Shown here: piece after piece, positions 2,825 to 63,201 of the stretch
How the letters are laid out: each line of letters begins with the position of its first letter
Numbering within the stretch: position 1 is the first letter of the stretch
From: an uncultured Nitrospiraceae bacterium
Lineage (GTDB): Bacteria > Nitrospirota > Thermodesulfovibrionia > Thermodesulfovibrionales > Dissulfurispiraceae
Length of the DNA: 64,000 nt
NCBI GenBank assembly: GCA_963705105.1
Contig: CAVPIW010000007.1
Span: 256,001-320,000, forward strand
Reading direction: 5' to 3'
The notes under the pieces: model-generated
The model's database searches: none
What the model saw: the letters and a program-made list of their open reading frames with translations, nothing else
Told to the model about the DNA's origin: nothing
Made by a program: the position numbers and the translations under genes

Positions 2825-3113
2825 CCTCATCGTTGCAAAAACACTCCCAGGAAAGGCGGGGTGAATGCGCCGAAAACCTTGATGCGGTGACACCTTAACC
2901 TTCACAGAAGATAGCATGCAAGCCGATGGTCGATCACACATACAGTTGAATCCTGCAGGGGCCGTTCCCCGAACGGCCCGACATGAATGCCGCGCCCCAT
3001 ATGGATCATTTCAGGCAAAGGGCTGAACAAAATTAACCCTTTACGGACACTCACACTGACACTGACACTGTTTTTCAGAGTGCTTCGCTCCGCCTTTCAA
3101 TGTAGCTACCGGG
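2825..3113. mobile_element. Modular MITE copy 1 (long end-B ... REP-like insert ... A-short end)
   Basis: CCTCATCGTTGCA...GGAAAGGCGGGG left end, CCGCCTTTC...TACCGGG right end, perfect TTCA duplication at 2821-2824 and 3114-3117. Confidence 0.85.
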
Positions 3114-3128
3114 TTCACACCAAACGGT

Positions 3129-4580
3129 CTATATAACGTAGAGGTCCACGTACTCGTGCACCGGCATGACCTCCAGCCTGCCGCGGTCGAGCGACGCGTC
3201 CAGGATCGCCTGCTGCTGCTTCTGCGGGAAGCGCCGGGCAAGGTTGGTCCGGAACTTTTCCACCAGAACCGGCATGCCTTCCCCGCGGCGGCGGCGGTGG
3301 CCGATGGGGTACTCGACCACGATCTCCGGCAGCGCCGTTCCGTCGTTCAGTTCCACGGTCAGGCCGTTGGCAATGGACCGCTTCTCCGGGTCGTGGTAAT
3401 CCTTCGTGAATTGAGGGTCTTCGAAGCACGTAATCTTGTCGCGCAGCGCATCTATTCGGGGGTCCTCAGCAACGCTGTCCTCGTAATCGGCCGCGGTGAG
3501 TCTGCCGAAGAGGAGGGGCACCGCCACCATATACTGGATGCAGTGGTCGCGGTCCGCCGGGTTGTTGAGCGGCCCCTTCTTGTCGATGATGCGGATCGCC
3601 GCCTCGTGGGTGCGGATACTGATCTTCCTGATGTCCGCCGCGCTGCGGCCCATGCCCTTGAGCTTCTCGTGGAGGCTCATGGCGCATTCCACAGCGGTCT
3701 GGGAGTGAAACTCCGCAGGGAAGGAAATCTTGAAGAGCACATGCTCCATGACGTAGGAGCCGTAGGGACGCTGAAACGCAAAGGACTTCCCCTTGAAGAG
3801 CACGTCGTAGAAGCCCCAGCCTTTGGCGGTGAGGACGCCGGGAATGCCCATCTCCCCCTTCAGCGAGAAGTGCGCGAGCCGGACGGCGCGGCTCGTCGCG
3901 TCACCGGCTGCCCAGGACTTGCGGGAGCCGGTATTCGGCGCATGGCGGTAGGTGCGAAGCGACTGACCGTCGACGAAGGCCTGTGATACGGCGTGTATCA
4001 CCTCGTCACGCGTCCCGCCCATGAGCCAGGCGCAGACAGCGGCAGATGCGACCTTGACGAGCACCACGTGGTCGAGGCCGACGCGGTTGAAGGCGTTCTC
4101 CAGGGCTATGACGCCCTGTATCTCATGGGCCTTGATCATCGCCTCGAGCACGGTCTTCATGATGAGGGGGTCCTTTCCCTGTGCGACGCCGGTACGGGAA
4201 AGCCAGTCCGCCGTGGCAAGGATGCCCCCGAGGTTGTCCGACGGATGGCCCCACTCCGCCGCCAGCCAGGTGTCGTTGAAGTCAAGCCACCGGATCATGG
4301 CGCCGATGTTGAAGGCCGCCTGGACGGGGTCGAGCTGGAACTGCGTGCCAGGTACTTTCGCGCCGTTCGGGACGACGGTGCCCGGCACGACCGGGCCCAG
4401 CAGCTTCGTGCAGGCGGGATAGCCGAGCGCCTCCATGCCGCAGCCGATGGTGTCAATGAGGCAGTAGCGCGCCGTTTCATAGGCCTCGCCGGATGTGATC
4501 GTGTAATCCCTGACATAGTCGGCGATGTCGGCAAGCACTTTGTCGGGTTCGGGTCTGACGTTAGAGATGTATGAACTCAT
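3129..4580 (-). CDS. prpD: 2-methylcitrate dehydratase
   Basis: [45 protein letters not shown]. Confidence 0.97.
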
Positions 4581-4615
4581 TGTTTCTCATCCTTTCAACA
4601 GTCTGGAGCCTGTCA

Positions 4616-5785
4616 TTACCGGTCCTTGATCGGCACATACGACCGGTCGTCGGGGCCGGTGTAGTTGGCTGACGGCCGGATGATCTTGTTGTCCATGCGC
4701 TGTTCGATCGTGTGCGCGCCCCAGCCGGTGGTGCGCGAGATCACAAAGACCGGCGTGAACAGGGGCGTGGGGATGCCGAGCATATGGTAGGCCACGGCAG
4801 AGTACCAGTCGAGGTTCGCGAACATGTTCTTTTCGCGTTTCATGACCATTTCGATCCGGTCTGCGATGTTGTGGAGGTTCACGTTGCCGCCGTCCTCGCA
4901 CAGGCCCCTGGCGATCGCCTTGATGACGGGGTTCCGCGGATCGCTCACAGTGTAGACCGGATGGCCGAAGCCGATGACGATCTCTTTCCGGGCCACGCGC
5001 GCCATGATGTCAGCCTCCGCGTCGTCCGGCGTCCGGTAGCGCCGCTGGATCTCATGGGCCGCCTCATTCGCGCCGCCGTGCTTGGGGCCGCGCAGCGCAC
5101 CGATTGAGCCGGTGACCGCCGAGTAGATGTCCGACAGGGTCCCGGCGATGACACGCGTGGTGAACGTGGATGCCGCGAACTCATGTTCGGCATAGAGGAT
5201 AAGGGACTGGTCCAGCGCCTTCTGATGCAGAGCGGAGGGCTTCCTGCCGTGCATGAGGTGCAGGAAGTGGCCGGCCACGGTCTCGTCGTCCGTTTCAACC
5301 TCAATCCGGCGCCCGTTCTGGGAGAAGTGCCACCAGTAGAGCAGCATGGAACCGAAGGACGCGATCAGGCGGTCAACGATGTCCCGCGCGCTCTGTACGT
5401 TCTGGTCCTCCTTCTCGGGCAGGACCGTGCCGAGGGCGGAGCAGGCCGTGCGCATCACGTCCATGGGATGGGCCGCTGCCGGGATGTGCTCCAGGATGGC
5501 GCGCACATGGGAAGGAATGCCCCGGAGCTGAATCAGCTTCTTTTTATAGTCCTTGAGCTGCGACTCCGTCGGGAGGCCTTCGTGAATGAGGAGATGAGCC
5601 ACCTCCTCGAAGGTCGATTTCTTTGCGAGCTCAACGATGTCAAAACCCCGGTAGTGCAAGTCGTTCCCGGTGCGGCCCACGGTGCAGATCGCCGAATTGC
5701 CCGCAACCACGCCGGAGAGGACGACTGACTTCTTCACTTTTGGGGCAGCGGCGTCCGCTGCCGGTGTGCCTGTGCTGCTGCTCAT
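4616..5785 (-). CDS. prpC: 2-methylcitrate synthase
   Basis: Citrate synthase motifs GPKHGGANE and GFGHPVY; located between prpB and prpD. Confidence 0.93.
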
Positions 5786-6672
5786 GATTTTGCCTCCTTG
5801 GAAAAGATCGCATCGAGTTTTTGTTCATAGGCATGGTAGCCGAGATGATCGTAGAGTTCCTCGCGGGTCTGCATCAGGTCCACAACATTCTTCTGGGAAC
5901 CGTCCTTCCGGATCGCCCCATAAACCGCCAGGGCGGCCTTGCTCATGGCACGGAAGGCGGAGAGGGGGTAGAGGACGAGGCTCACGCCGGCGCCGCGCAG
6001 CTCTTCGACGGTAAAGAGGGACGTTGAGCCGAATTCCGTGATGTTGGCCAGGATAGGAACATTAACGGCCTGCGCGAACTGCCTGTACGTTTCCAAATCC
6101 TTCACCGCCTCAGGAAAGATCATGTCCGCGCCGGCCTCGACGCATGCAGCGGCCCGCGCGACGGCTGCTTCGAGCCCTTCGACGGCAATGGCATCTGTTC
6201 TGGCCATAATGACGAAGCCGGGGTCGGTCCGGGCATCAACGGCTGCCTTGACCCGGTCCACCATCTCCTCCTTCGGCACGATCGCCTTGCCCGGCCGGTG
6301 GCCGCATCGCTTCGCCTGGACCTGGTCCTCCATGTGGACTGCTGCGGCCCCGAACTTGATCATAGATTTGATCGTACGGCCGATATTGAATGCGCCGCCC
6401 CATCCGGTGTCGATGTCCACGAGAACGGGAAGGTCCGTGATGTCGGTGATGCGACGGACATCGGTCAGGACGTCATCCATGGTGCTGATACCCAGATCGG
6501 GGATCCCGAGGGAACTGGCGGCAACGCCGCCTCCCGACACATAGAGCGCCCTGAATCCCGAGTGTTCGGCAAGCCTGGCTGCATAGGCGTTCACGACGCC
6601 GACGACCTGAAGCGGCCGTTCGGCCTTGACGCCGGCGCGGAAGCGGGTGCCCGGTGAATTCTGCTGCGTCAT
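5782..6672 (-). CDS. prpB: Methylisocitrate lyase
   Basis: [25 protein letters not shown]; start MTQQ after GAGGTGAG. Confidence 0.96.
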
Positions 6673-6698
6673 GATACTCACCTCTTTGTCCGGATTAC

Positions 6699-6923
6699 CA
6701 TTAGTGTCCAAAATAACGTGGCACGAGGATAGGACGTGCTTTCTTGGCAAAATAGACATTGTCGTTGCATAGAAAGGCGGGGCGAAGCGCTCTGAAAAAT
6801 AGTGACAGTGACAGTGTGAGTGTCAGCATATTCCCACCTTTCTTATTATGGTACGGTGTCGCCGCATCAAGGTTTTCAGCGCACACACCCCGCCTTTCCA
6901 GAGTCCCTATCGCAACGACAAGA
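6699..6923. mobile_element. Modular MITE copy 2 (A+B, 6757-6923) inserted in an older H-type arm
   Basis: TTGCATAGAAAGGCGGGG...CCCCGCCTTTCC...CGCAACGACAAG; flanks match the H arm seen at about 48150-48220. Confidence 0.8.
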
Positions 6924-7128
6924 TCGTTTCCCTTTGTCACAAATTCTATCATTAACTTGATTCTAGTGCAAATAATCGATCAAAATACCGGCGTTGAGTA
7001 CAAGTGACGGACGGGTCACCTTGTAGATGAAGAGGGAAACATGCATGGCCCGCTTTTCATCCTGAATAATGAACATACTTTACCGGCCGGCGCCGACCGG
7101 CTGGATCACGATTGTAAGGAGTCCTGCC

Positions 7129-7668
7129 ATGGCGAATAAACCAGTGAAGAAGACCGTCGTGACAAAGAAGAAGGAGGTCGTGAAGAAAAGCGAGACGGCT
7201 CCGGCAAGGCGGACTGTGACTGCGAGAGCGGCCGCGCCGAAGAGGGGTGCCGCGGAGTTCAGCGTGAAAACCGGTATGGAGATCACTGCCATGTTCCCGG
7301 ACACCATTGGCCTGACCGCGAAGGTTGCCGAGGCAGTGGCGGCTGAAAATGTGAACATCCTTGCGGCTACGGGATATTCGGCCAGCGGCTTTCGCGAGAA
7401 GGCGACCTTCACGCTTGTCGTGGACGACTATGCCCGGGCCGAGCAGGCCCTGCAGCGCATCGGCGCCAACGAGATCCATCAGTCCACGGTACTGCTCGTG
7501 GAAACGCCGAACCGGGTCGGCGCGCTTGAACGCATCGCAAAGCTCATCGCCGGCGCGGGCATCAATATTTTCTATTTCTACGCCACCACCAGTTCGGGCG
7601 ACACGGCGACCACCGTCATGAAGACGGCAGACGACACGAAGGCGATCAAGGTGCTGAAGAAGGCATAG
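7129..7668 (+). CDS. Tandem ACT-domain protein with Lys-rich N-terminal extension
   Basis: PDTIGLTAKV...NVNILA and PNRVGALERIA...GINI ACT motifs; AAGGAG RBS. Confidence 0.85.
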   Translation: MANKPVKKTVVTKKKEVVKKSETAPARRTVTARAAAPKRGAAEFSVKTGMEITAMFPDTIGLTAKVAEAVAAENVNILAATGYSASGFREKATFTLVVDDYARAEQALQRIGANEIHQSTVLLVETPNRVGALERIAKLIAGAGINIFYFYATTSSGDTATTVMKTADDTKAIKVLKKA

Positions 7669-7672
7669 TGTA

Positions 7673-7884
7673 CCTTCCCGTTGCATGAAAAGGCGGGACA
7701 GAGTGCCTCAAAGCCTTGCTGACAGCGAGCATGATCATCTGAAATTGGACATTGGGGATTCCACCCTTTGTGTCATCAACCGTCATCCTGACATGATCCG
7801 TATGGAAAGGCAGAGGTTTCGCAGCACCAAGGCTTTTCGGCATCTTCGCCCCGCCTTTCCGGAGGCCCTATTGCAACGATAATG
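7673..7884. mobile_element. Modular MITE copy 3 (C+D)
   Basis: CCTTCCCGTTGCATGAAAAGGCGGG...CCCCGCCTTTCCGG...TTGCAACGATAATG; flanks TGTA/TTCA. Confidence 0.85.
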
Positions 7885-8014
7885 TTCAGCGTCCAGTGAC
7901 GTACTCTTGAGGATAATCCAAACAGGGGCCGCTCTCGGAAAAACGGAGGTCGTCCCACGCCGGAGACCTCCGCGTTTCTGAGATCAATCGGAACCTGACA
8001 GCCCTATTGCGGAA

Positions 8015-8413
8015 CTATTTTGCGAGTGCCTTTAACGCCTTGGCATCATCGGCCGTCGACAGGATGGCCGTGCAGGTCTTGCCGGTGAATGCCGTGCCGT
8101 ACGTGTAATTGATGTTGACACCCGCCGCGGCGATCTTCTGCGCGGCCTTCTGCATCTCTCCCGGCTTGTTCGACATCTCGAGGGCGATCACACTCTCTTC
8201 CTTCACGGCGGCGCCCATTTTTGCGATCGCCTTTTTCGCCTTCGCGTTGCCGTCGGTGATGAGCATGAACTCTGCCTTCCCATTCATCGCATAGGCGCAA
8301 CTGGCGACGATGTTCACCTTTGCGGCAGCGATTGCGGCCGCAATGTCGGACAGGAGACCGGGCCTGTCATCCATCACAAACTGGAGCTGTTTTTCCTTCC
8401 GAGCCTTTGCCAT
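8015..8413 (-). CDS. Tandem ACT-domain protein
   Basis: DDRPGLLSDI...VNI and NKPGEM...GVNINYTY; GGAGG RBS. Confidence 0.9.
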   Translation of the reverse strand: MAKARKEKQLQFVMDDRPGLLSDIAAAIAAAKVNIVASCAYAMNGKAEFMLITDGNAKAKKAIAKMGAAVKEESVIALEMSNKPGEMQKAAQKIAAAGVNINYTYGTAFTGKTCTAILSTADDAKALKALAK

Positions 8414-8707
8414 ACACCCACCTCCATCAGATTTTTCTTACATTAATATCAGAAAAGCGAGAGGAATTCAAGAATTATTTTTTCACATTGTGATTCATGC
8501 CCATCATCACATTTCCCCCCTTGTCAACAAATGCTTGGCACTCTTACTTCCCTCACCTGCCGATTCTATTACTTGATTGTTGCCTCAACATGTTGATATG
8601 CCGGTCTTTCTGTTGTCTTTCTGTTTGACATAACCTATCTTTTCCGATAAGATTTAAATGTCATCGATAGCCAATAAATAATGATAGACTGACAAAGACC
8701 CGAGCCT

Positions 8708-8944
8708 ATGTTCAGAAACCCACAGAATGCTTGGCTTCTTCTCGGTGATCAAGCATCGTACTTCACGCCCTCTGAATTACGAAAGGTCAGACGGCAAAAT
8801 GAAAAGGGGCGAATTGAATCGTGGACGTGTTCTCCGCGGGTCGAAGAGGGAGATCTCCTCTTCATCTATTTCACCTCTCCGCGAAGTGCTGTCCATTTCG
8901 TCTCGCGTGCGATATCACGACCGCATGTCGCTACCCACCACTGA
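8708..8944 (+). pseudogene. Truncated EVE/PUA-like N-terminal fragment, probably from a restriction-type protein
   Basis: AWLL...WTCSPRVEEGDLLFIYFTSPRSAV then an abrupt end; lower-GC context. Confidence 0.45.
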
Positions 8945-9096
8945 TGCTCAGAAACCTGACTTATTGAGTTTACTCCCATCGTCCGGTCGCGACTTGCCTT
9001 CAGCTCTCACTTGTGATAGCATCCATTAGAATGAGTGTTCTGCGGACAGCAACTGACATTTGCCAACTGTAGTATGACGATTACGGAGGGTAGTGG

Positions 9097-9402
9097 ATGA
9101 GGCCGGTTGTTCAGGATCGTGAAAGCGTTCTTGAGGTATTGAGAACATACAAACAAGAGTTTGAGCGGCTATATGGTATTACAGCAATAGGAGTATTCGG
9201 TTCAGTGGCCAGGGGCGAGACCTGTCAGGGCAGTGACGTGGACGTTGTTGTGCAAATGAGAGAGCCCAACCTTTATTACATGGTACACATCAAGGATGCG
9301 CTTGAAAAAGCATTCCACGTACATGTAGACATTATTCGTTACCGTGAAAAGATGAACCCCTTCCTGAAAAAACGAATCGATAGGGATGCGGTATATGTCT
9401 GA
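9097..9402 (+). CDS. MNT minimal nucleotidyltransferase antitoxin
   Basis: FGSVARGE...SDVDVVV motif. Confidence 0.9.
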   Translation: MRPVVQDRESVLEVLRTYKQEFERLYGITAIGVFGSVARGETCQGSDVDVVVQMREPNLYYMVHIKDALEKAFHVHVDIIRYREKMNPFLKKRIDRDAVYV

Positions 9403-9781
9403 CCCCAACCTGGCAATTGAGATTCTTGAGCAGATACTCGAAGCCACCCTCAGGATCGAGCGCCGCTTTGGTCCTATCCGTCAACCCGATGATTTCCTGG
9501 CCACCGATGAGGGGATTGATCGCCTCGACGCAATCAGCATGATGCTGATCGCCATTGGCGAGAGTCTGAAACACCTGGACCGGGTGACCAGCGGGGAACT
9601 GCTGCTGAAATATCCCGGCGTGGACTGGAAAGGCGCAAAGGGGGCGCGGGACGTCATCTCACATCACTATTTCGACATAGACGCTGAAGAGGTCTTCAAC
9701 ATCTGTCGGAATGATATTCCCGCATTGATCAGAACCGTTAAAGAGATGATTGAGGACCTGAAACGCGGTGCCACCTCCTGA
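9395..9781 (+). CDS. HEPN (DUF86/HepT-like) ribonuclease toxin
   Basis: IGESLK, RDVISHHY (Rx4H) motif; overlaps the MNT stop. Confidence 0.9.
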   Translation: MSDPNLAIEILEQILEATLRIERRFGPIRQPDDFLATDEGIDRLDAISMMLIAIGESLKHLDRVTSGELLLKYPGVDWKGAKGARDVISHHYFDIDAEEVFNICRNDIPALIRTVKEMIEDLKRGATS

Positions 9782-9819
9782 AATGCTCCGTGAAACCACG
9801 TGAACATCTCAGGAGGGCA

Positions 9820-9996
9820 TCACGGCGAGCTGCGAGCTGTCGTCGTCTTGTCCCGGAGCAGGAGCACCCCTTTCCTGATGAGAAAACCGACGGAGATGAT
9901 GGCGATGACGACGAGGAGGATAGACCCGAGGAAACCGACGGCGATGAGCATGACTGCGCTCAGGAGGACTTTCACGAACTTGCCGATTGCGCTCAT
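9820..9996 (-). CDS. Small 58-aa membrane protein (below the ORF-track cutoff)
   Basis: MSAIGKFVKVLLSAVMLIAVGFLGSILLVVIAIISVGFLIRKGVLLLRDK...; host-like GC3; TAAAAT 6 nt upstream of the ATG. Confidence 0.65.
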   Translation of the reverse strand: MSAIGKFVKVLLSAVMLIAVGFLGSILLVVIAIISVGFLIRKGVLLLRDKTTTARSSP

Positions 9997-10008
9997 GGTC
10001 AGATTTTA

Positions 10009-10070
10009 CCTCATCGTTGCAATACACTTTCAGGAAGGGCGGGGTGTATGCGCCGAAAACCTTGATGCGG
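10009..10070. mobile_element. Solo long end + B arm of the modular MITE
   Basis: TTTA|CCTCATCGTTGCAATACAC...GGCGGGGTGTATGCGCCGAAAACCTTGATGCGG. Confidence 0.75.
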
Positions 10071-10074
10071 ACGC

Positions 10075-10803
10075 TCAGGATGATGCGGGACCGTCGCCCT
10101 CTTCTCCTGTTTCCGGAGGGCCTGACTTTCCGGCGCTTCCTCCCAAAGTCTCTTCAAGCCTGATCGTCCTTTCGATCGCCCCGGAGAGATAGTCCCGGAA
10201 GCGTTCCGGGATGAGCCACTGGATGCCGAGCTTCTCGGCCCAGGCAATCAGTCCCTGGTCGGCGGTGACAAGGACCGCATCGAGCTCCCGGGCGAGGAGG
10301 AGAAGGTCCACATCCTCCCTGCTGTCGATGACTCCCTCCCTGAGGGCTTCCCTGTACTTTTTCCTCAGGTCCTGGATGATCTCGTCGGGCTTCCTCTGCT
10401 CGGCGGACCTGACGGCCTTCTCGGCGATGCGCAGCCCCTTGTTGACCCTGTCGCGCAGGTCCTCGATCAGCTCGTAGAGCACGAACCCGGGGATGGGTAT
10501 TTCATGCCTCCGCGGCGGCCGCTGGTGGAGAATGAGGAGGAGGTCGCCGGGTATGCGGCTCTTGTCGACGAAATTGAGGAGTTCGCTGAAGGTCGAGGGA
10601 GGCATATAAAATTCGAGCACGTGGATCTGCGACGCGAGAAAGAGAAAGGTCTCCAGGGCCTCCGTCGGCGTCGTTCCGAGGCTCATCCTGACGTCGGGAT
10701 TGACGAACAGGCTCGTGTCGAGGACCACCTTCCGGGGAGGAGGAAAGGGGGAATAGGTCCGCCGCGTATCGGGCGAAGTGTCTTCCCCGCCGGCTTCAGG
10801 CAT
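10075..10803 (-). CDS. RNA-free (protein-only) RNase P, HARP / Aq_880-like PIN-domain protein
   Basis: VLDTSLFVNPDVR, FYMPPS, RVNKGLRIAE, YREALREGVIDSREDVDLLLLARELDA.LVTADQG. Confidence 0.9.
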   Translation of the reverse strand: MPEAGGEDTSPDTRRTYSPFPPPRKVVLDTSLFVNPDVRMSLGTTPTEALETFLFLASQIHVLEFYMPPSTFSELLNFVDKSRIPGDLLLILHQRPPRRHEIPIPGFVLYELIEDLRDRVNKGLRIAEKAVRSAEQRKPDEIIQDLRKKYREALREGVIDSREDVDLLLLARELDAVLVTADQGLIAWAEKLGIQWLIPERFRDYLSGAIERTIRLEETLGGSAGKSGPPETGEEGDGPASS

Positions 10804-10827
10804 CGTTCGTTCCCTGCAGGTTCTCCA

Positions 10828-11268
10828 TCAGTGATGATATTCCATGCCTTTCTGTATCGTGAATGCCCTGTATATTTGCTCCAGGAGGACGAGCCTCGCC
10901 ATTTCATGGGTGAGGGTCATCCGGGATAGCGCAAGTATGGTGTCCGCCCTGTCACGGACTTCCCGGGAAACGCCGAAGGGTCCTCCCAGGACAAAATCAA
11001 TGGCAGGCCTTTCACCGAGAAGGGAGGCAAAACCGGGCGATGTGAGTTCATCACCTTTTTCATCGAGCAGCACAAATGACTGTGTCTGCCTGATGATCCT
11101 CGACCCCTCCGCTGCAAGGGCCTCTTCCCTGCTCTTCCCCCGCCCTTCCCGGACCTCGACGACGGAAACCCGTGCGAAGCGCCCCAGGAGTTTCAGGTAG
11201 TGATCGATGCCCTCAGTAAGATAACGCTCTCTGGTCCTGCCGGGCCAGACGATCCGGATCTTCATCAT
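10828..11268 (-). CDS. rlmH: 23S rRNA m3-pseudouridine1915 methyltransferase
   Basis: LLDEKG, FVLGGPFG, LTHEMARLVLLEQIYRA...YH. Confidence 0.95.
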   Translation of the reverse strand: MMKIRIVWPGRTRERYLTEGIDHYLKLLGRFARVSVVEVREGRGKSREEALAAEGSRIIRQTQSFVLLDEKGDELTSPGFASLLGERPAIDFVLGGPFGVSREVRDRADTILALSRMTLTHEMARLVLLEQIYRAFTIQKGMEYHH

Positions 11269-11605
11269 CGGCTGCGATTCTCGGGGCATCGAGCCAGAGC
11301 TTCTCCAGCTCATAGTATGATCTCGTCTCATCCTCGAAGATATGGATGACGACGTCGCCATAGTCCATAAGCACCCAGTGCGCGTACGTCATGCCCTCGA
11401 TGCTCAGCGGGGTGCAGCCGATTTTTTTCAGCTCTGATTCGATGTGTTCGGCGATAGCCCTGACTTGGGGGATGTTGTCACCGGAGCAGATGACGAAGTA
11501 GTCGGAAATAACGGTGAGACCCTTCAGTTCGAGGATCACGGTGTCTTTTGCCTTCTTCGCCCGGGAAGCCCGTGCCGCCTCCTGAGCCTTCTCTAAACTG
11601 TCTAT
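11213..11605 (-). CDS. rsfS: Ribosome silencing factor, apparent ATA start
   Basis: DYFVICSG, WVLMDYGDVVIHIF, YYELEKLW; AAGGAGG 7 nt before an in-frame ATA at 11605. Confidence 0.93.
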   Translation of the reverse strand: MDSLEKAQEAARASRAKKAKDTVILELKGLTVISDYFVICSGDNIPQVRAIAEHIESELKKIGCTPLSIEGMTYAHWVLMDYGDVVIHIFEDETRSYYELEKLWLDAPRIAADDEDPDRLARQDQRALSY

Positions 11606-11665
11606 GTGCCTGCCTCCTTTCAGAATGATGATTTATTATACCAGACCGTCGCCATCCAAAATAAT

Positions 11666-12087
11666 ATTTGTCGTTGCAATAAAAGGCGGGGCAAAGCGCC
11701 TCAGAGCCTCGCTGATAGCGAGCATGATCGTTTATTATGGTGTATCAGGAATTCACCCTTTGTGACATCGATCATGAGCCTAATGCCTTATCGTTGCAAT
11801 ACACTTCCGGGAAAGGCGGGGCGTATGCGCCGAAAACCTTGCTGCGGCGACACCATAACTCTCACGGAAGACAACCTTTCAAACCAATGGTCGACCACAC
11901 AAAGAGTGGAATCCTGAAAGACAAACCTGACGAGGCTTATCGTCGCCTTCAGCAAGGCTTGAGGCGTTTCGCCACGCCTTTCTATGCAAGGTAATAGTAT
12001 CTTTATGGGAAGGCAAAGGTCTCGCAGCACCGAGGCTTGTCGGCGCCTTCACCCCGCCTTTCCGGAGATCACATTGCATCGATAAGG
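11666..12087. mobile_element. Nested MITEs: outer C+D copy (11666-12087) containing an inner B+C' copy (11786-11991)
   Basis: Outer copy has a perfect TAAT duplication; removing the inner copy restores the C-D architecture of copy 3. Confidence 0.85.
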
Positions 12088-12150
12088 TAATCCGACACGA
12101 GGATTGGCCGGAATAATTCCGTTCACTCACACTGACACTCGCACTTTACA

Positions 12151-12936
12151 CTATCTTCTCTTTCGGCGGTCGTCCCAAAAGGCGTTCATTAGGGCCACGG
12201 CGACGATCGCCGCCGTCTCAGCCCTGAGGACCCTCCTGCCGAGGCTTGTTGCCACAAGACCGCACTCCTCTGCTCGCAGCACCTCCTGCTCCGTGAACCC
12301 CCCTTCGGGTCCGACGAGGAGATACACAAGCCCCGCGGCCGTCCTGGCGATACCATCGCCCGCAGGCTCCGCATCGGGCAGGCCCGGCAGAAGGCCGTCA
12401 AAGGCATCGGGAAAATCCCTTCCGCTTTCAGGCCTGAAAATGAGTCCCTTCAAAGCAGGACCGCCCTGCCGCACCACGGTCCCAAACAGCCGGGGCTCGT
12501 GGATACTCGGGATGACGGCGCCGCCGCACTGTTCGACCGCTTCTTCCGCGATTTTTCTCCACCTGCCGACTTTTCTCGTCTCCCTGACGAGGCACCGTTC
12601 GGTGATGACGGGTGCAAACTCCGAGATCCCGAGTTCCGTCGTCTTCTGGAGGACGACATCCATTTTCTCTCCCTTGAGAATCCCCTGGCAGAGCACGATC
12701 CTCAGGTCCTTCTCCGCGCCCCGTCCGTCCTTCCCTTCTCCCGCCATGGCGATCGTGACGGCATGCTTCGACGTCCCCGTCACGACAGCCCCATAAACCA
12801 TGCCCACGCCGTCGATGACGGTGATGTCCTCCCCCTTCTTCACCCTCAGGACCGAGAGGAGATAATGGGATTTCTCCGCAGGCAGGCTGATTTCTCCGCC
12901 CTTTGCGATCACCTCAGGGGGAAGGTAGATTCTCAT
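12151..12936 (-). CDS. rsmE: 16S rRNA m3U1498 methyltransferase
   Basis: QKTTELG, EAVEQC, VGPEGGF, LGRRVLRAETA. Confidence 0.95.
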   Translation of the reverse strand: MRIYLPPEVIAKGGEISLPAEKSHYLLSVLRVKKGEDITVIDGVGMVYGAVVTGTSKHAVTIAMAGEGKDGRGAEKDLRIVLCQGILKGEKMDVVLQKTTELGISEFAPVITERCLVRETRKVGRWRKIAEEAVEQCGGAVIPSIHEPRLFGTVVRQGGPALKGLIFRPESGRDFPDAFDGLLPGLPDAEPAGDGIARTAAGLVYLLVGPEGGFTEQEVLRAEECGLVATSLGRRVLRAETAAIVAVALMNAFWDDRRKRR

Positions 12937-12952
12937 GCCGGGAGGGGTTCGG

Positions 12953-14041: not shown

Positions 14042-14060
14042 CGGTCAGCCGGTATGGTCA

Positions 14061-14351
14061 CCGTGCAGTTGTTTGAAAAGGCGGGGCGAAACGCCTCAAA
14101 GCCTTGCTGAAGGCGACGATACGCCTCATCAGCTTCGTGTTTCAGGATTCCACTCTTTGTGTCATCGACCATTGGCGTATAGTTCATCTCTCGTTTTGAT
14201 ACAGGTGTCGCCGCAGCAAGGTTTTCGGCGCATACACCCCGCCTTTCCGGAAAGCGTATGCAACGATAAGGTTATTATGTTACGGTGTCGCCGCATCAAG
14301 GTTTTCGGCGCATACGCCCCGCCTTTCCGGAGATCGTATGCGATTATAAAA
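14061..14351. mobile_element. MITE C'+B (14061-14271) followed by a second B arm and long end
   Basis: Two consecutive GGTGTCGCCGC.CAAGGTTTTCGGCGCATAC.CCCCGCCTTTCCGG blocks between dnaK and dnaJ. Confidence 0.85.
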
Positions 14352-14365
14352 CTCAGAGGCTGCAA

Positions 14366-14399
14366 CCGGCGGCCTCCCCATGCGGGGAGGCTTTGCCGG
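14366..14399 (-). terminator. GC-rich hairpin after dnaK
   Basis: GCCTCCCC-ATGC-GGGGAGGC stem with an extended CCGGC/GCCGG. Confidence 0.45.
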
Positions 14400-14421
14400 C
14401 CGCCATATCAGGGTGTGGCGC

Positions 14422-18234: not shown

Positions 18235-18655
18235 CTGCGGAACAAGACCACGAACACCCGGACGGAAGGCTGATGTAGTGAAAAGCCTTTCCGCTAAGAT
18301 ACCCTATTCATCACCGGACTACACCTTATCGTTGCAATAGGACATCCGGAAAGGCGGGGCGAAGATGCCTCTAAGCCTTGGTGCTGAGAAACCTATGCCG
18401 TCCCATACGGATTATTTCAAGCGTATGGTTGATCGCATAAAAGATGAGATCCCGAATGTCCCATTTCAAATGATCATGCTCGCTATCAGCAAGGCGTTGA
18501 GGCACTTTGTCCCGACTTTTCATGCAACAGAAAGGTACACTTTGCCGTGTCCATTCATAACAGATGCCCGTCAGGCACCAGGCGCCGAACACCTTGAGAT
18601 GTTTCATCATCGCATTGGAAAGGCTCAGAACCATGTCTGCCTTCCCGGCGACAGC
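18235..18655. mobile_element. Nested MITEs: D+C copy (18324-18535) inserted into an F-E internal module
   Basis: Perfect TACA duplication; the empty site (TCACCAGACCACACTTTGCC) is seen uninterrupted at about 27161-27180. Confidence 0.9.
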
Positions 18656-20798: not shown

Positions 20799-20967
20799 CC
20801 CTGTAGTTGTATAAAAAGGCGGGGCGAAGCGCTCTGAAAAATAGTGACAGTGACAGTGTGAGTGTCAGCATATGCCCACCTTAATCTTATTATGTTACGG
20901 TGTCGCCGCATCAAGGTTTTCGGCGCATACGCCCCGCCTTTCCCGGAAGTGTATTGCAACGACAAGG
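20799..20967. mobile_element. Modular MITE (A+B)
   Basis: Perfect TTAA duplication at 20795-20798 and 20968-20971. Confidence 0.9.
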
Positions 20968-26982: not shown

Positions 26983-27368
26983 CCTTTCGTTGCAATACAC
27001 TCCCGGGAAAGGCGGGGCTGGGGTGAATGCGCCGAAAACGAGCGACGCCGTGACAGTCATTAAGTCATTAGCCGGCAGTCAAGCGTCGGAACAAGGCCAC
27101 AAGCATTGGGACGGGGAGGCTGATGTGGTGAAAAGCCTTTCCTCTAAGATACCTTATTCATCACCAGACCACACTTTGCCGTGTCCATTGATACGAAAAG
27201 CCCGTCAGGCAACAGGCGCTGAACACCTTGAAATGTCTCATCATCGCATTGGAAAGGCTTTGAACCATATCTGCCTCCCCGGCGAAACAGCATTTAGAAT
27301 GAAATGATCATCGTCGCCTTCAGCAAGGCTTTGAGGCGCTTTGCCCCCCTTTTCATACAGCTCAAAGG
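26983..27368. mobile_element. Long modular MITE (long end-G-F-E-C'-short end)
   Basis: Both terminal repeats present; flanks TTAA/TTAC. Confidence 0.85.
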
Positions 27369-29006: not shown

Positions 29007-29390
29007 CCTTAACGTTGCAATGGGACCTCCGGAAAGGCGGAGCGTATGCGCCGACAAGCCTCGGTGCTGCGAAACCTTTGCCTTCCCATACAGATCATGT
29101 CAGACAGATGGTGGATGACACGAACGATGAATTCCCGATACACCAATAATAAACGATCATTCTCGCTATCAGCGAGGCATTGAGGCGCGTCGTCCCGCCT
29201 TTTCATTGCAACTGGAAGGTTTACCTTATCGTTGCAACACACTCCCAGGAAAGGCGGGGTGTATGCGCCGAAAACCTTGATGCGGCGACACCGTAGCATA
29301 ATAAGAAAGGTGGGCATATGCTGACACTCACACTGTCACTGTCACTATTTTTCAGAGCGCTTCGCCCCGCCTTTCCAACCAGCCGAAAGG
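29007..29390. mobile_element. Tandem MITEs D+C (29007-29219) and B+A (29224-29390) sharing a TTTA target
   Basis: TTTA|element|TTTA|element|TCTA. Confidence 0.9.
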
Positions 29391-34865: not shown

Positions 34866-35065
34866 TCTCTCAGTCCTATGAGAAGGCGGGACAAAGTGCT
34901 CTGAAAAAAACAGTGTCAGTGTCAGTGTGAGTGTCAGCAGAAGGTTCACCTTTTTTTCAACCGTGAGCCTGACATGATCCTTATGGGAAGGCAAAGGTTT
35001 CGCAGCACCAAGACTTTTCGGCAGCTTCGGCCCGCCTTTCCGGAGTTCCCATTGCGGCAATCAGG
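34866..35065. mobile_element. Modular MITE (A+D) between kinase and response regulator
   Basis: Perfect TTAA duplication at 34862-34865 and 35066-35069. Confidence 0.85.
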
Positions 35066-35491: not shown

Positions 35492-35772
35492 TAATGGGGA
35501 CAGCGCCCTATTTATCTTGATCTGCAATGCACGTGATTGTTCATCAGGCAATAGGCCCAGATGCCCAGAGAATATTTCCGGCTGTATAGCGTCAGCCAAT
35601 CCAGATACCGGAGGAAATCGTCATCACTGTCAAAGACCCTCTGGCGGTAGTTGTCCCGCTGCGCGATGTGATGAGGATATCCGACTGCAACCGCTCTTGC
35701 TATTCTCGTTATGGTTCAATGCTATGGCACCACACCCCGTTTGTCAATAAATGGGCGCTGTCCCTATTTATC
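35492..35772 (-). mobile_element. Internally deleted (mini) derivative of the RAYT element
   Basis: Both end motifs of 36455-37200 present; the last few RAYT codons are fused directly to the 5' third. Confidence 0.85.
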
Positions 35773-36475: not shown

Positions 36476-37141
36476 TTATCTTGATCTGCGCGGTCTGCCT
36501 CGCGGCAAGGCAGTCAACACCCGGCCGAGCACCTGCTCCATTTTCCTTTCAAACGCCTCATCCCCACAGGGACGACCTGTCCGTGTACACTGCCGTATCT
36601 CGTCAACTAATTCAGGTTCCTCCGTCTCCCTCAAGTATCCCGACCAATCTTTGATCCTCCCGACAAGATAGCAGTCATCAGAAAGCACAGGGTCAGCATG
36701 TCCCTTCACATGCGCCCCCGCGCTCGACCAGCGGTATTGATCCGCTTTTAAGACGATCCCGGCTTTCACCGGATTATTCTCCACATATCGCACAGCCGCA
36801 TAGAGATGCCGTTCATCCAGAACGCACGAGTAAAACCGCCCCTGCCAGAGATGTCCCCTTTGATCTTGCTTCGTGTTGATGTGCTGCGAATATCTCATAT
36901 GAAGTGTGTTGAAGGTCTTTGCCAGGGCATCATCTTCATGAGGGACGGCAATGAAGTGCACATGATTGTTCATCAGGCAATAGGCCCAGATGCTCAGAGA
37001 ATATTTCCGGCTGTATAGCGTCAGCCAATCCAGATACCGGAGGAAATCGTCATCACTGTCAAAGACCCTCTGGCGGTAGTTGCCCCGCTGCGTGATGTGG
37101 TGAGGATATCCGACTGCAACCGCTCTTGCTATTCTCGGCAT
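36476..37141 (-). CDS. REP-associated tyrosine transposase (RAYT, HUH Y1)
   Basis: HHITQRGN.RQ, AYCLMNNHVH, HLWQGRF, YVENNP, WSS; flanked by inverted GGGACAGCGCCC.ATTTAT repeats (36457-36479, 37177-37198). Confidence 0.93.
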   Translation of the reverse strand: MPRIARAVAVGYPHHITQRGNYRQRVFDSDDDFLRYLDWLTLYSRKYSLSIWAYCLMNNHVHFIAVPHEDDALAKTFNTLHMRYSQHINTKQDQRGHLWQGRFYSCVLDERHLYAAVRYVENNPVKAGIVLKADQYRWSSAGAHVKGHADPVLSDDCYLVGRIKDWSGYLRETEEPELVDEIRQCTRTGRPCGDEAFERKMEQVLGRVLTALPRGRPRRSR

Positions 37142-37206
37142 GGTTCAATGCTATGGCACCACACCCCGTTATGTCAATAAATGGGCGCTGTCCCTCTTTA
37201 TTCCCC

Positions 37207-37372
37207 GATACCGGAGGAAATCGTCATCACTGTCAAAGACCCTCTGGCGGTAGTTGCCCCGCTGCGTGATGTGGTGAGGATATCCGACTGCAACCGCTCT
37301 TGCTATTCTCGGCATAGTTCAATGCTATGGCACCACACCCCGTTATGTCAATAAATGGGCGCTGTCCCTAAT
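37207..37372 (-). mobile_element. Tandem partial duplication of the RAYT 5' end and end motif
   Basis: Near-identical to about 37033-37198. Confidence 0.85.
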
Positions 37373-48111: not shown

Positions 48112-48117
48112 GATTAG

Positions 48118-48465
48118 CGATGCAGTCGCATGAAAAGGCGGGGCTGAACTTCATTGGTGTCCAAGGTAACGTAACACGAGGACAGGGCATGCTTTCTTCG
48201 CAAAATAAACTCCCTTTCCTCATGAGCATGTCTTTGTTTTGAAAACATGTGTCTTCACAGGTACACCTTTCTGTTGCATGGAAAGGCGCGGCGAAGCACC
48301 TCAAAGCCTTGCTGAAGGCGACGATGAGCCTCGTCAGCTTCGTGTTTCAGGATTCCACTCTTTGTGTCATCGACCATTGGCGTATAGTTCATGATACAGG
48401 TGTCGCCGCAGCAAGGTTTTCGGCGCATACACCCCGCCTTCCAGAAAGCGTATGCAACCATAAGG
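48118..48465. mobile_element. H-arm MITE unit (about 48118-48261) followed by a C'+B MITE (48266-48465)
   Basis: Second unit has a perfect TACA duplication (48262-48265, 48466-48469). Confidence 0.88.
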
Positions 48466-48645
48466 TACACAGTGCGGCTCCCGCTGCGGCTTGCGCCTTC
48501 GTCTACCGCCGCCGTGAACATTACCCGTGAATTTTGCTTCAGAAACCACACCCCGTCCTCGTTTTCAAGGTCTCGCTGCACAATATCTGGACAAAGGTGA
48601 GGGGTATACATTGCGGTTATCATGGGATGAAATCAGGAGGCAATC

Positions 48646-49912: not shown

Positions 49913-50107
49913 CTTTATCGGTGCAACACACTCCCGCGAAAGGCGGGGCGTATGCGCAGAAAACCTTGCTGCGGCGACACCGTAACTCTCACAGAAGACG
50001 ACCTTTCAAGCAAATGGCCGAAAAGTGAGCCTTTTTACTGACACTGACACTCACACTGACACTGTTTTTCAGAGCGCTTCGCCCCGCCTTTCCATGCAAC
50101 TGAAAGG
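49913..50107. mobile_element. Modular MITE (B+A)
   Basis: Perfect TTTA duplication at 49909-49912 and 50108-50111. Confidence 0.88.
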
Positions 50108-51008: not shown

Positions 51009-51017
51009 AACAACCTC

Positions 51018-51176
51018 CCCCAAAACAAAGTGTCAGTGTGAGTGTGAGTGCCAGTGAAAGGAGACGTCATAAATAATTATCCCAAAAAAAAGTGTCAGTG
51101 TGAGTGTGAGTGCCAGTGAAAGGAGACGTCATAAATAATTATCCCCAAAAAAAAGTGTCAGTGACAGTGTGAGTGA
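51018..51176. repeat. Tandem repeat with 62-63 bp period (about 2.4 copies) containing the GTGTCA/GTGTGA hexamer satellite
   Basis: GTGTCAGTG blocks start at 51030, 51092 and 51155. Confidence 0.9.
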
Positions 51177-51177
51177 A

Positions 51178-51361
51178 CCTTAACGTTGCAATGGGACCTC
51201 CGGAAAGGCGGGGCGTATGCGCCACCCAATAAATTATTGAGTCATTGAGTCATTGAGTAATTGAGTAATTAAGTCATTGACGGCAGTCAACAGGCGCTGA
51301 ACACCTGGAGAAGTCTCATCATCGCATTGGAAAGGCTTTGAACCATATCTGCCTTCCCGGG
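51178..51361. mobile_element. Partial MITE (long end-G satellite-E)
   Basis: TGAA|CCTTAACGTTGCAATGGGACCTCCGGAAAGGCGGGG, (ATTGAGTC)n, E module. Confidence 0.8.
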
Positions 51362-51406
51362 GCAGAGCCGCTGCCGGCGATGGCATCCAGGAGCCTCGCC
51401 CCGCTT

Positions 51407-52492
51407 TTATCGGCTGCCGGCTGAGGGCGACCGGCTGTCTTTCGGCCTCTCTTTCGACTCGATGAAGATATCCACCTGCTGTCCGGCATAAACGGGAAAG
51501 TCGGGGGGAGTGAAACGGTAGATGACCTGGAGCACCCGGACGTCGACCCGCTCCGTCGTGTTGCCGGTGAGCTGTCTCTTGGGAATGATGTAGGGATCGA
51601 CGCGCTCGAATTCGAGGGGGATCTGCCTGTCCGTGTATCCCCGGAGGTAGGCGATGGCACGGGCGCCCTTCCGCACGTCCACCGCGTTGACCTCGTCGAT
51701 GTCCGCCCTGATCTGGAGGCGGTCCGTCCGTCCCATGAGAACAGGCGATTCAGCCTGACCCGGGGCGATCCACTCGCCGGGCCGCACGTTGATCTGGAGG
51801 ATGGCGCCGTCCTTCGGCGCACGCACGGTGTGCCACGAGAGGACCTGGGACGCCTCCTTCAGGGATGCCCTCTTTGCATTGAGTGCCGCTTCCTGCTCCC
51901 TGACCTCATATTCCCACGCGCCGGCTTTGACGGCGGCGAGGTTCGCCTTTGCCTCACCGAGGCTCGCCTCGGCGGCCTTGACCTGCTGACGCGTCTGATC
52001 GATGGCGTCCTGGCTGACCGATCCGGGATAGGCCTCCCAGGTCTTTTCGAGTCGCGCCAGCCGTGTTTTCAGGTCCGCCAGCTGCGCCTCCGCCCGCTCC
52101 ACAGCCTGTTCAAGGGGCACGACATTTTCCGGTCTCGGCAGGTGTCGCAGGAGGGCGAGCCGCTCTTCCGCGGCCTTGACCTCTGAGGTCAGCCGCTCGA
52201 CGAGGGCCTTCTGCGCACGGCCGTCAAGTTCGATCAGGGGGTCTCCCGTCCTGACCTGCTGGTTTCTGGACACGAAGATCTTCTCGACGAGGCCGGCCAC
52301 CTGGGACTGGACGCGCACATTCTCTTCGGTGGACTCGATGATGCCTGACCCGGCGACGGATACGGGGAAGGGGCTTGCCGAGGGCGCGTGGAGCGGCGGC
52401 GGAGGGGGCTGCGTTTTGCCGCCGACGACAACGCGGTAGATGCCGAAGAGGATGCCGATGATCGCCAGGACAAAAAGGGCCTTATACTTCAT
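51407..52492 (-). CDS. HlyD/DevB-like membrane fusion protein
   Basis: N-terminal TM, coiled coil, lipoyl half motifs, ERVDVRVLQV. Confidence 0.9.
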   Translation of the reverse strand: MKYKALFVLAIIGILFGIYRVVVGGKTQPPPPPLHAPSASPFPVSVAGSGIIESTEENVRVQSQVAGLVEKIFVSRNQQVRTGDPLIELDGRAQKALVERLTSEVKAAEERLALLRHLPRPENVVPLEQAVERAEAQLADLKTRLARLEKTWEAYPGSVSQDAIDQTRQQVKAAEASLGEAKANLAAVKAGAWEYEVREQEAALNAKRASLKEASQVLSWHTVRAPKDGAILQINVRPGEWIAPGQAESPVLMGRTDRLQIRADIDEVNAVDVRKGARAIAYLRGYTDRQIPLEFERVDPYIIPKRQLTGNTTERVDVRVLQVIYRFTPPDFPVYAGQQVDIFIESKERPKDSRSPSAGSR

Positions 52493-53199: not shown

Positions 53200-53200
53200 G

Positions 53201-54341: not shown

Positions 54342-54380
54342 GTTTCAGCATATCACAGGGACGGCGCCGTTTCAAATCAT

Positions 54381-58004: not shown

Positions 58005-58020
58005 GGCATGAAACGGGAGG

Positions 58021-58914
58021 CTACACGAGTCTGCGGCTGATGAGGGGCTCGAGCGTAGCTATGATCTTTCCCTTGTTGAAAATGGACACCCTTCCGGTGC
58101 TCTCGGAAACGACGATTGCGACGGCGTCGGTGATCCGCGAAATGCCCGCGGCAGAACGATGGCGCGCGCCGAGTCCCCTCAGGCTTTTCGAAATATGTCC
58201 GGACACGTCGAGGTGACGCCCTGCCGCCTCGACAACGCCGTCATCGGATATGACGACAGCACCGTCGAGCTTGGAGAGCTCCTTGATGCTCTCGACGACC
58301 TCGGGCCGTGTGATCATGCGCTCGTCCCGGTCGTACCCTTTGAAGGGATTGAAGACGGTCTGATGAGACGATCTCATGACGTTTTCCGTATCGCCGATGA
58401 CGAAGGCGGTGCCGAGAGGCTTGCCTTCCCGACCCAGAGCCCCGATGTCGAGGGCGATGTCGACGACGGCCATGATCGTGTGAAAGGCCCTGTTTTCCAT
58501 GAGAGGCTGGACCTCGAAAGGAAACTCTTCGCTCCAGGAGTGGGCGAGGTCATGGATGGTGATGGTGTCGAGATGACATCTGCCGTACGGGCCAAGGACG
58601 CAGACGACCTTGCTGTCGGGCCTGATGATGCCGTGGAGAACGCCGTTCATAAATGCGTACTTGATCCGGGAAAACCTGCTCTGGTTCCCGGACCAGCTCT
58701 TCAGGACCGTGGCGCATTCCGGAATGGCTTCATTGCCTGTCAGGGTCAGATAGGTGGGGATGACGATGACGATGAGATCTTTTTCGATGATGCCGCACTT
58801 TATGAACCACCTGCATTCCGACGGGGTGCTCGTGAAAAGGAAGACCCTTTCGCACCCTGTCTTTTTCGCCAGGTCAAGAGCGCTCTCGATGATGAAAAGA
58901 CGCTGATCCTTCAT
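58021..58914 (-). CDS. Diadenylate cyclase, DacZ-like architecture
   Basis: REGKPLG, DGA and RHR motifs, VSES; soluble N-terminal domain. Confidence 0.88.
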
Positions 58915-59040
58915 GGTTTCTATGATACCACAGCACAGGACGGAATCCGCACTTTCCGCTCACTGACACTGACACTCACACTGTCACTGAATGCAGACTT
59001 GCGTGATGCCCCTGTCTTGAATTACATTTATAAAATAATT

Positions 59041-61734
<2,694 letters not shown>

Positions 61735-61739
61735 GAAAT

Positions 61740-62120
61740 CATCGTGGTTGCATGAAAAGGCGGGGCGAAGCATTCTGAAAACAGTGTGAGTGTGAGTGTC
61801 ACTGCCGCTGCCGACGGGAAGGCAGATATGATTCAAAGCCTTTCCAATGCGATGATGAGGCATCTCAAGGTGTTCGGTGCCTGTTGCCTGACGGACGTTT
61901 GTTTTCAATCGACACGGCAAAGGGTGGTCTGGGGATACAAGAGGGTATCTTAGCGGACAGGCTTTTCATCACATCAGCCTTCCCGTCGTGACGTACGTGG
62001 TTTTGTTCCCATTGTCGACTGTCGTTCAATGACTTAGTGACTTAATGACTCAATGACTTAATGACTTTTCTAGGTGGTCTTCACCCCGCCTTTCCGGAGG
62101 TCCTGTCGCACCGGTTAAGG
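61740..62120. mobile_element. Long modular MITE (short end-A-E-F-G-long end)
   Basis: Inverted relative to 26983-27368 but carries arm A instead of C'. Confidence 0.85.
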
Positions 62121-62220
62121 ATACTGAAAGACGGGGATTATTTTAAGAACCGATGATAAGCTATAATGAATGTCAGGCATTGTTGCCCCTGGCAAGAAGA
62201 ATATCCGATCGGAGGAAGGA

Positions 62221-62892
62221 ATGAAGGGAAAGACCATTTTGATTACCGGCGCCAGTTCCGGCATCGGCAGGGCGAGCGCACTCCGCTTCGCTTCGGAACG
62301 CGCGAACCTGATTCTCACCTATAAGAAAAAGAAGGTCGAAGGCGAGGACACGGAGCGGCGCTGCAGGGAGGCCGGTTCCTCGGAGACCCTCCTGCTGAAG
62401 ATGGATGCGCTGAAAGATGCGGACATCGCAGCGGCCGTTGAGGCGGTGAAGAAATCCTTCGGTACCGTCGACATTCTGATCAATAACGCCGGCACCAATA
62501 TCCTGAAGACCTTCAGTGAAATCACGGGAAACGACATTGAACTCCAGCTTCGCACGAACCTTGAAGGGCTGATCAAAATCACTCATGCCTTTCTCCCCAT
62601 CGTCAGAGAGGGGATCATAAATATCGGGAGTTTTCTCGGCAAGAATCCCTCCGAGGATTTTGCGGTCTACTGCGCGTCGAAATACGGTGTTCGCGGTTTC
62701 ACCCAGGCCCTTGCGCTGGAGTATCCCAAGCTGAAGATCTGCTGCTTCAACCCGGACATGACGGCGACGCCGCTGACGGGTTACCAGGGAAGATCGCCCG
62801 AGAAGGTGGCGGACCTCCTGTACCGGACCGCAGCAGGAGAAATAGCCTGTGCTGACGGCGGAGACGTCGACGTCTGGGTTTTGGATAAATAG
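62221..62892 (+). CDS. Short-chain dehydrogenase/reductase
   Basis: TGASSGIG, NNAG, YCASK. Confidence 0.93.
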   Translation: MKGKTILITGASSGIGRASALRFASERANLILTYKKKKVEGEDTERRCREAGSSETLLLKMDALKDADIAAAVEAVKKSFGTVDILINNAGTNILKTFSEITGNDIELQLRTNLEGLIKITHAFLPIVREGIINIGSFLGKNPSEDFAVYCASKYGVRGFTQALALEYPKLKICCFNPDMTATPLTGYQGRSPEKVADLLYRTAAGEIACADGGDVDVWVLDK

Positions 62893-62926
62893 GGTGCTGT
62901 TTATACACTCACAGAGTTGAAGTGTA

Positions 62927-63201
62927 CCTTTCTGTTGCATGAAAAGGCTGGGCGAAGCGCTCTGAAAAACAGTGTCAGTGACAGTGTGAGTGTCAGCAAA
63001 AGTTCACATTTTTTCAGCCGGCGGCCTGAAATAGCTTCATCGATGTCGGGCGTTCGGGGAACGGCCCCTACACTATTTCATCCTTATGTGTCATCGACCA
63101 TTGGCGTATAGTTCATCTCTCGCTTTGATACAGGTGTCGCCGCATCAAGGTTTTCGGCGCATTCACCCAGCCTTTCCCGCAAGTGCATTGCAACGATGAG
63201 G
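62927..63201. mobile_element. Modular MITE (A ... REP-like insert ... B)
   Basis: Both ends intact, flanks TGTA/TCTA; shares its internal module with copy 1. Confidence 0.88.

Follow-up and report, generated by a model that had tools for sequence, protein, structure and literature searches.

A non-coding IS1380-ended element family of an uncultured Nitrospiraceae bacterium and the probable exchange of interior blocks between its copies

The stretch analyzed here, a window of 64,000 nucleotides (contig CAVPIW010000007.1, positions 256,001-320,000), holds copies of a miniature inverted-repeat transposable element (MITE) in which a short (left) end with arm A, C or C' faces a long (right) end with arm B or D. 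We consider it probable that this non-coding element, with the ends of IS1380 insertion sequences (IS) and a 4-bp TNNA target duplication, is moved by a borrowed transposase and became mosaic through short, in-register exchanges between copies that resemble gene conversion. The ends, the duplications, the collinearity of C'+B with C+D, the recombination signal, the in-register switches and the A/C patches in copies carried by a second MITE family are the observed part of this reading.

The family, its IS1380 ends and its target duplications

An earlier note on the window, made from the sequence alone, had listed 16 elements, and all 16 were recovered at the starts it gave; the extents were corrected for the copy at 48266, which ends at 48465, and for the copy at 11666, which is a 422-bp host with the copy at 11786 nested in it. 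The motifs of arms A, C/C', B and D were present in the copies assigned to them with zero to four mismatches. Across the whole genome, an indel-tolerant search gave 1,271 ends (647 short and 624 long) in 686 clusters, of which 379 were simple pairs of one long and one short end, and multi-end clusters covered 2.9% of the genome. The copy number is about 600, in a genome of 99.4% marker completeness in which repeats may be unassembled. A profile search with the two end types found 1,062 merged ends in the real genome and no match above 14 bits in the reversed genome; therefore, the ends are not due to chance. Adjacent inward-facing ends less than 1 kb apart were a short and a long end in 346 of 365 pairs, and the modal length was 211-213 bp. 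No transposase of their own was found between paired ends in the element catalogue of the genome, in which segmental or tandem duplications with identical copies and flanks were counted twice (C15 and C5 near 217841; C9 37420 and 38948). The element is short, multicopy and gene-less and has IS-like terminal inverted repeats, and past movement is visible in the presence or absence of 11627-12158 between strains and in near-identical copies at unrelated sites. By all features examined, it is a MITE and is derived from IS1380.

The ends and the duplication type are common to the MITE and an IS1380 transposase clade. From a search of 401 genomes in the phylum, 30 IS1380 loci were fetched, and similar ends were found in two. 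The transposase at one locus, L080, scored 240.7 bits against NF033539 (cut-off, 180). IS1380 elements of the L080 subclade (NF033539, PF13701) have CC...GG ends, a left inverted repeat (IRL) that equals the MITE short tip, a right inverted repeat (IRR) that equals the long tip, and 4-bp TNNA duplications, which by our reading were exact in seven of nine copies in one relative. Beyond the tip, the L080 leader was identical to the short end plus C' at 43 of 94 ungapped positions (22.8 in shuffles, with none of 300 reaching 43), which was the strongest of 56 comparisons. The MITE differs from these elements in being about 212 bp long, lacking a transposase gene and repeating the inner left end in inverted orientation next to the right tip. 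Because the leader is collinear with the short end and C', the original interior was likely C/C', and B/D likely arose as an inverted duplicate of C/C' that was fused to the right tip. The proposal that B, C and D are homologous was borne out: C aligned with D and C' with B, and together they form an inner inverted repeat. The MITE was likely mobilized by a borrowed IS1380 transposase.

The exact long-end pattern was absent from 150 other genomes of the class and had no match in plasmids; two metagenome matches lay inside an unrelated gene and were discarded. Candidates for an autonomous partner found through PF01609, PF13751, PF13546 and PF01797 were rejected, as those transposases, among the repeated elements of the genome that were read, carry other ends.

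The 4-bp TNNA duplication was exact in 93 of 183 CC-tipped pairs, compared with two for exact 3-bp and four for exact 5-bp duplications; in a set of 173 copies, 92 were exact versus 12 under random pairing. In the window, duplications were exact in 8 of 16 copies (2825, 11666, 18324, 20799, 29007, 34866, 48266 and 49913), with one mismatch in three and two or three in five; the matched duplications that the earlier note reported for chimeric copies are exact in only four of the nine that it treated as such. The mismatches were spread evenly across the four bases, and among C'+B copies, exact duplications dropped from 23 of 28 to 6 of 28 with growing distance to the nearest relative. Rearrangement between loci was therefore rejected as the main source of mismatches, and imperfect duplications mostly represent decay after insertion.

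Arm pairings, recombination and passenger copies

Among 340 simple copies, we counted 90 A+B, 123 C'+B, 18 A+D, 48 C+D, one C'+D and no C+B. A set of 242 collinear copies of 206-216 bp was composed of 141 C'+B, 87 C+D, one C'+D and 13 unclassified copies. The C'+B and C+D consensuses are 70% identical, painting assigns each interior to one of these two families, and exchange between the two is mostly in the outer long-end spacer. Free mixing of arms, as had been proposed, does not describe these counts: C'+B, C'+D, C+B and C+D stand at 123:1:0:48, far from random association. A hairpin penalty was rejected as the cause, since the mean energies of half-swaps (-77.9 and -67.6) differed too little from those within families (-82.0 and -67.4; 40 each).

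Arm A is unrelated to C and occupies the same frame. Joins of A to a right half were in register, with 50 of 108 A copies switching at frame positions 100-109. The satellite that forms arm A also stands free, in 126 of 329 arrays without an element end within 260 bp, and it flanks a four-helix-bundle gene (C9:319898-320341); A is thus likely a captured satellite patch and the promiscuous part of the system, this source being our inference. The 132 A copies fell into 33 motif-defined classes, 10 of which had at least two copies with exact duplications, indicating that such chimeras spread as units. A second four-helix-bundle gene (C6:828429-828917) is flanked by short tandem satellites, and MITE-derived sequence at the end of the gene supplies its stop codon. 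An IS1634-like element (C10:240792-243138) is inserted in the satellite of an A+G-F-E copy.

G-F-E, which had been described as a further long-end arm, is instead a 168-bp core with two arms of its own, present in 96 full copies. In 316 further genomes of the order, weak matches were found in six for G-F-E and in three for C'+B. Six of 11 inspected loci, from four genomes, were 209- to 219-bp elements with IS1380-type tips, with an exact 4-bp duplication in five. G-F-E aligned end to end with the cores of these relatives (z, 9-12); its alignments with C'+B and C+D were weaker (z, 5-7; at most 4 for the middles alone). Because of these cross-genome alignments, G-F-E is no longer taken for a foreign element bounded by inverted ends of its own; it is likely a sister lineage of the entire core that is old, has no tips and sits within younger ends. 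The related MITEs (L131, L135, L139, L140, L141 and L145, in G433, G579, G578 and G447) have the same inner inverted repeat, and some have the left and right tip types on opposite spacers.

In 123 C'+B copies, linkage between sites (r2) decayed from 0.109 at 1-5 bp to 0.020 beyond 120 bp, with none of 1,000 permutations as strong, whereas two clonal simulations run at matching site rates gave an r2 that was flat with distance. The earlier note had suggested that left and right arm trees be tested for incongruence. The half-trees were incongruent: none of 30, 30 and 40 random splits was as short (z, -5.6, -3.6 and -4.6), compared with z values of -0.3 and 0.1 in the clonal simulations. Two parents improved the fit by at least eight sites in 23 of 242 copies, versus two to five in five column permutations. 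These results support recombination within a population of copies over descent from a single master copy, as had been suggested. Mean distance within one family was 18%. Whole tips were swapped at 23 ends; four of these ends were in copies with exact duplications, and one was a clean inversion. The arm classifier of this analysis labels many C arms as C', and its pair table was not used. Long-range linkage of paired sites in C+D (r2, 1.0) was set aside as confounded by two sublineages.

The second MITE family is about 245 bp long, with CA...TG ends, a 9-bp duplication (exact in 22 of 55) and block-like variation of its own; in the window, it occurs at 6699-6752 and around 48118-48560. We take its ends to resemble those of IS4-family elements; a long element that combines such ends with a matching duplication was not found. 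At 24 loci, it carries as a passenger a copy of the first family whose short tip has lost CC. The passenger interiors were A at 15 loci, C at eight and other at one. Each tip haplotype was found with A and with C (at one site in 21 aligned rows, 3 and 9 copies had A, and 2 and 6 had C), and in three passenger copies rarer alleles flanked the patch on either side although the interiors differed. Exact 9-bp carrier duplications were found with both interiors (two A and four C of 12 measurable). At least two patch exchanges are needed in the passengers, with both flanks kept and the IS1380 ends unused. Because A and C patches lie on the same flanking haplotypes and an exchange in place keeps the duplication, matched duplications do not prove that a chimera was formed before it moved. 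Of the earlier claim that chimeras formed first and then transposed as units, the spread as units stands and the proof of order from duplications does not.

Origin of the mosaics and alternative explanations

In the proposed history, the ancestor would have contained the left end and leader of the IS, and their inner part, duplicated in inverted orientation, would have been joined to the right tip. C'+B, C+D and G-F-E would be old sister lineages of this one frame. Free satellite would have replaced the C segment to give A, which would then have passed to several right halves. Exchange would be common between close copies and seldom occur between C'+B and C+D, which are 30% apart; transposition would then amplify new mosaics, and larger forms would arise by nesting and capture of other small repeats. 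We infer RecA-type conversion at resident copies rather than copy choice during transposition.

Several observations weigh against this history. No IS1380 transposase was detected in this genome, with no PF13701 match and no match to the L080 protein at E ≤ 1. MutS and MutL genes are encoded, and loss of mismatch repair was rejected for that reason as a cause of exchange between diverged copies. Identity tracts at junctions were short (median of 4 versus 8 expected, and longer in 7 of 23), which does not favor long-homology recombination, although this is a biased and noisy measure and the actual parents no longer exist. This history does not account for the scarcity of C'+D and C+B: swapped halves fold about equally well and have a shared block between them. 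In a mixture fit, about one-quarter of the copies fitted unrelated flanks. No same-locus swap of interiors was seen among the contigs listed in two strain-contig comparisons, in which contigs mostly ended inside repeats. In addition, the exchanges in passengers could have occurred during the carrier's own transposition.

Some of these points favor template switching (copy choice) in transposition or donor-site repair over conversion of quiet resident copies. The very short junction tracts, the two bases shared where the passenger A patch ends on its right side and the presence of mismatch repair genes are consistent with it, and whole-tip swaps with exact duplications need only a single switch if it happens in a moving intermediate. 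However, the same patchwork is found in a lineage moved by a different element, and in old copies the inner arms persist as the tips decay, which requires a process after insertion; we thus regard copy choice as unlikely. The earlier note had offered nested insertion and later use of an alternative end as a generator of new arm combinations, a route that would resemble that of ISEcp1. There are 13 nested four-end and 17 three-end clusters, 14061-14351 fits this route with one mismatch, and PMC12589106 describes the use of imperfect right ends by ISEcp1, an IS1380-family element. In contrast, an internal tip was kept in none of the 340 simple copies, and the switches are in register with length preserved. 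The 17 three-end clusters had a duplication at the outer end only in two, the inner only in two, both in two and neither in 11; the outer-only figure is at chance level, as about one such case is expected from a chance of about 7% per pair. Nesting explains the compound forms, not the table of arms, for which it is a very unlikely main source.

Deletions and recurrent point mutation in the descendants of one or a few master copies might also mimic mosaics. Many copies are old and noisy, the C'+B and C+D interiors behave as separate lineages, and four-gamete rates are as high in the clonal simulations as in the data, giving no separation; but those simulations lack the linkage decay and the incongruence, and A and C fill the one frame with unrelated sequence, which makes this explanation hardly credible. 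Artefacts of assembly or polishing would be a concern in a metagenome-type assembly with about 600 similar repeats. Against this, the family is present in contigs from runs of other studies, as are the passenger C junction and the A-to-B and A-to-D junctions; contigs of two such runs (X3 and X5) have the A arm on the unique flank of the 61740 copy, two contigs run into the 11666 copy, and exact duplications lie at unique sites. We consider artefacts highly improbable.

Selection by the host for an inner RNA or DNA stem, with the modules as its leftovers, was considered in view of the pattern of conservation within copies. C'+B copies were binned by how far the duplication had decayed (exact in 54, one mismatch in 21 and more in 34): tips diverged to 17-30%, figures that misplacement of tips can inflate, while positions 31-60 and 146-170 stayed at about 1% and the middle at 4-8%. 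The contrast was weaker in C+D. Within each lineage, the two inner arms were more alike than either was to the arms of other lineages. Across five genomes, both sides had changed together in 11 of 22 predicted pairs, in an alignment of 11 rows from few lineages, one without its left arm, whose structure came from the same rows and whose covariation term was only -0.14. The inner arms hold a motif that we take to resemble the IHF consensus. Stem selection accounts for conservation and not for mosaicism, and A copies are numerous without a C arm, so that it can be given almost no weight as the origin of the modules. For the conservation itself, conversion (among copies or between arms) and stem selection predict the same pattern. 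Going beyond the exchange in place that we prefer, we put forward only tentatively, as something we doubt more than believe, that resident copies form a genome-wide conversion network that outlives mobility. Such a network would shuffle blocks even into passengers of another family and keep a 40-bp inner inverted repeat at fixed spacing, intact and coevolving across genera of one order long after the tips decay, through an unrecognized form of short-homology or hairpin-templated copying despite MutS/MutL or through a host need for the stem.

Copies in the window, related systems and implications

The A copies of the window are of several builds. Those at 2825..3113 (-; exact TTCA duplication) and 62927..63201 (+; one mismatch) run from the short end and A through a D-type middle and a palindrome like the repetitive extragenic palindromic (REP) sequences to B and the long end. 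The palindrome, ending in CTAC, is present in about 18 A+B copies, including these two, and also outside elements. Short A+B forms lie at 6757..6923 (+; duplication unmatched), beside one end of the second family (carrier with 9-bp duplication; 6699..6752, -, limits approximate), at 20799..20967 (+; exact TTAA) and at 29224..29390 (-), the last in tandem with the C+D copy at 29007..29219 (-; exact TTTA) with one TTTA between them. In the A+B copy at 49913..50107 (-; 195 bp; exact TTTA), the in-register junction of A is near position 103 of the 212-bp frame, and an A+D copy is at 34866..35065 (+; exact TTAA).

Further C+D copies are at 7673..7884 (+; 212 bp; two mismatches), 11666..12087 (+; the 422-bp host; exact TAAT) and 18324..18535 (-; exact TACA), the last with a short stretch in its D arm that matches its own C arm. 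The segment 11627-12158, which holds the 11666 copy, is absent from the contigs of runs X3 and X4. The C'+B copy nested in the 11666 copy (11786..11997, -) has a shortened short-end tip and a TAAT repeat one base out of register at its flanks. Between dnaK and dnaJ, a C'+B copy (14061-14271) is followed by a second short B and long end up to 14351 (14061..14351, +); the outer end yields a duplication with one mismatch, and the whole is a possible alternative-end unit. The C'+B copy at 48266..48465 (+; exact TACA) has a short internal deletion and lies inside a copy of the second family.

The copy at 18324 splits a G-F-E core without recognizable tips (18263..18646, -, limits approximate). Whole G-F-E cores with a satellite linker and long end follow a short end with C' at 26983..27368 (-; one mismatch) and a short end with A at 61740..62119 (+; core at 61816-61984). 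Free-standing arrays of the six-base satellite of arm A (51023..51177, +) adjoin a long end with a satellite linker, part of G-F-E and a decayed short end (51178..51410, -, right limit approximate). A solo long end with part of B is at 10009..10075 (-, right limit approximate), and in the strains of runs X3 and X4, 130 different letters replace 9988-10149 around it.

Other features of the window include a Y1 (IS200-like/RAYT-type) transposase gene at 36476-37141 (-), bounded by short inverted repeats, with partial duplicates of its 5' part at 35523-35741 and 37126-37344; three more Y1 genes are found elsewhere in the genome. A nucleotidyltransferase and HepT-like pair (MNT-HEPN type) is at 9097-9781, and contigs of runs X2, X3 and X4 skip the surrounding 8475-9823. 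Rfam at gathering score gave no match in the window. In the genome, a single reverse transcriptase gene (514 amino acids; C14:277935-279479), which we take to be of a defense type, lies among nonhousekeeping genes with no element end within 2 kb; the MITE ends are of DNA transposon type. Contigs C1 and C3 have G+C contents of 45.5% and 67.2%, compared with about 57% elsewhere, and no element cores; they are probably foreign in the bin. The most frequent 20-mers are TC/GA dinucleotide runs (347 each). At L001, an open reading frame at 362-1825 (-) between two element ends is, by eye, presumably nitrogenase alpha-chain-like.

The family shares features with several known systems. Like Correia elements of Neisseria (CREE) and other bacterial MITEs, it has hundreds of intergenic, non-coding copies with inverted ends and a target duplication (PMC2649163, PMC3184786, PMC10969869). 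Correia end variants occur on every length type, in symmetric or asymmetric pairs (PMC2649163). In contrast to Correia elements, the present family has IS1380 ends, TNNA rather than TA, and exchanged interior blocks in several deep sister lineages rather than mainly deletions of one core. ISEcp1 makes 5-bp duplications and captures DNA through alternative right ends (PMC12589106), and capture is not the main process in this MITE. In ISWpi1 of Wolbachia, the two ends of one element exchange with conversion within about 23 bp of homology (PMC3004938), which the clean inversion with an exact duplication and the tip-swapped ends recall; however, ISWpi1 is an autonomous IS5 element studied at two loci, whereas here exchange is mainly between hundreds of non-coding copies. 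Tn3-derived TIMEs and BIME/NIME repeats are also mosaic, non-autonomous units or clusters built from small repeats (PMC4133298, PMC3184786), but TIME mosaics are composite transposons between two elements and BIMEs are REP clusters, whereas the mosaic here is within one frame of fixed length. MITEs have been proposed in reviews as recombination hot spots (PMC3184786, PMC10969869). In a literature search of partial coverage, with most subscription journals outside it, no paper was found that describes exchanged interiors in a MITE derived from IS1380.

The usual view of a bacterial MITE family is that of a burst from a single master copy, with intact duplications taken as a mark of transposition. 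With several hundred diverged copies, recombination can be measured and mapped within a 212-bp element, and the passenger lineage indicates that the interior of a copy can change while its flanks are kept. If exchange in place is true, ages and family trees based on MITEs would mislead, and the family would provide a countable natural assay of short-tract exchange between repeats diverged by 5-30% in a cell with mutS and mutL.

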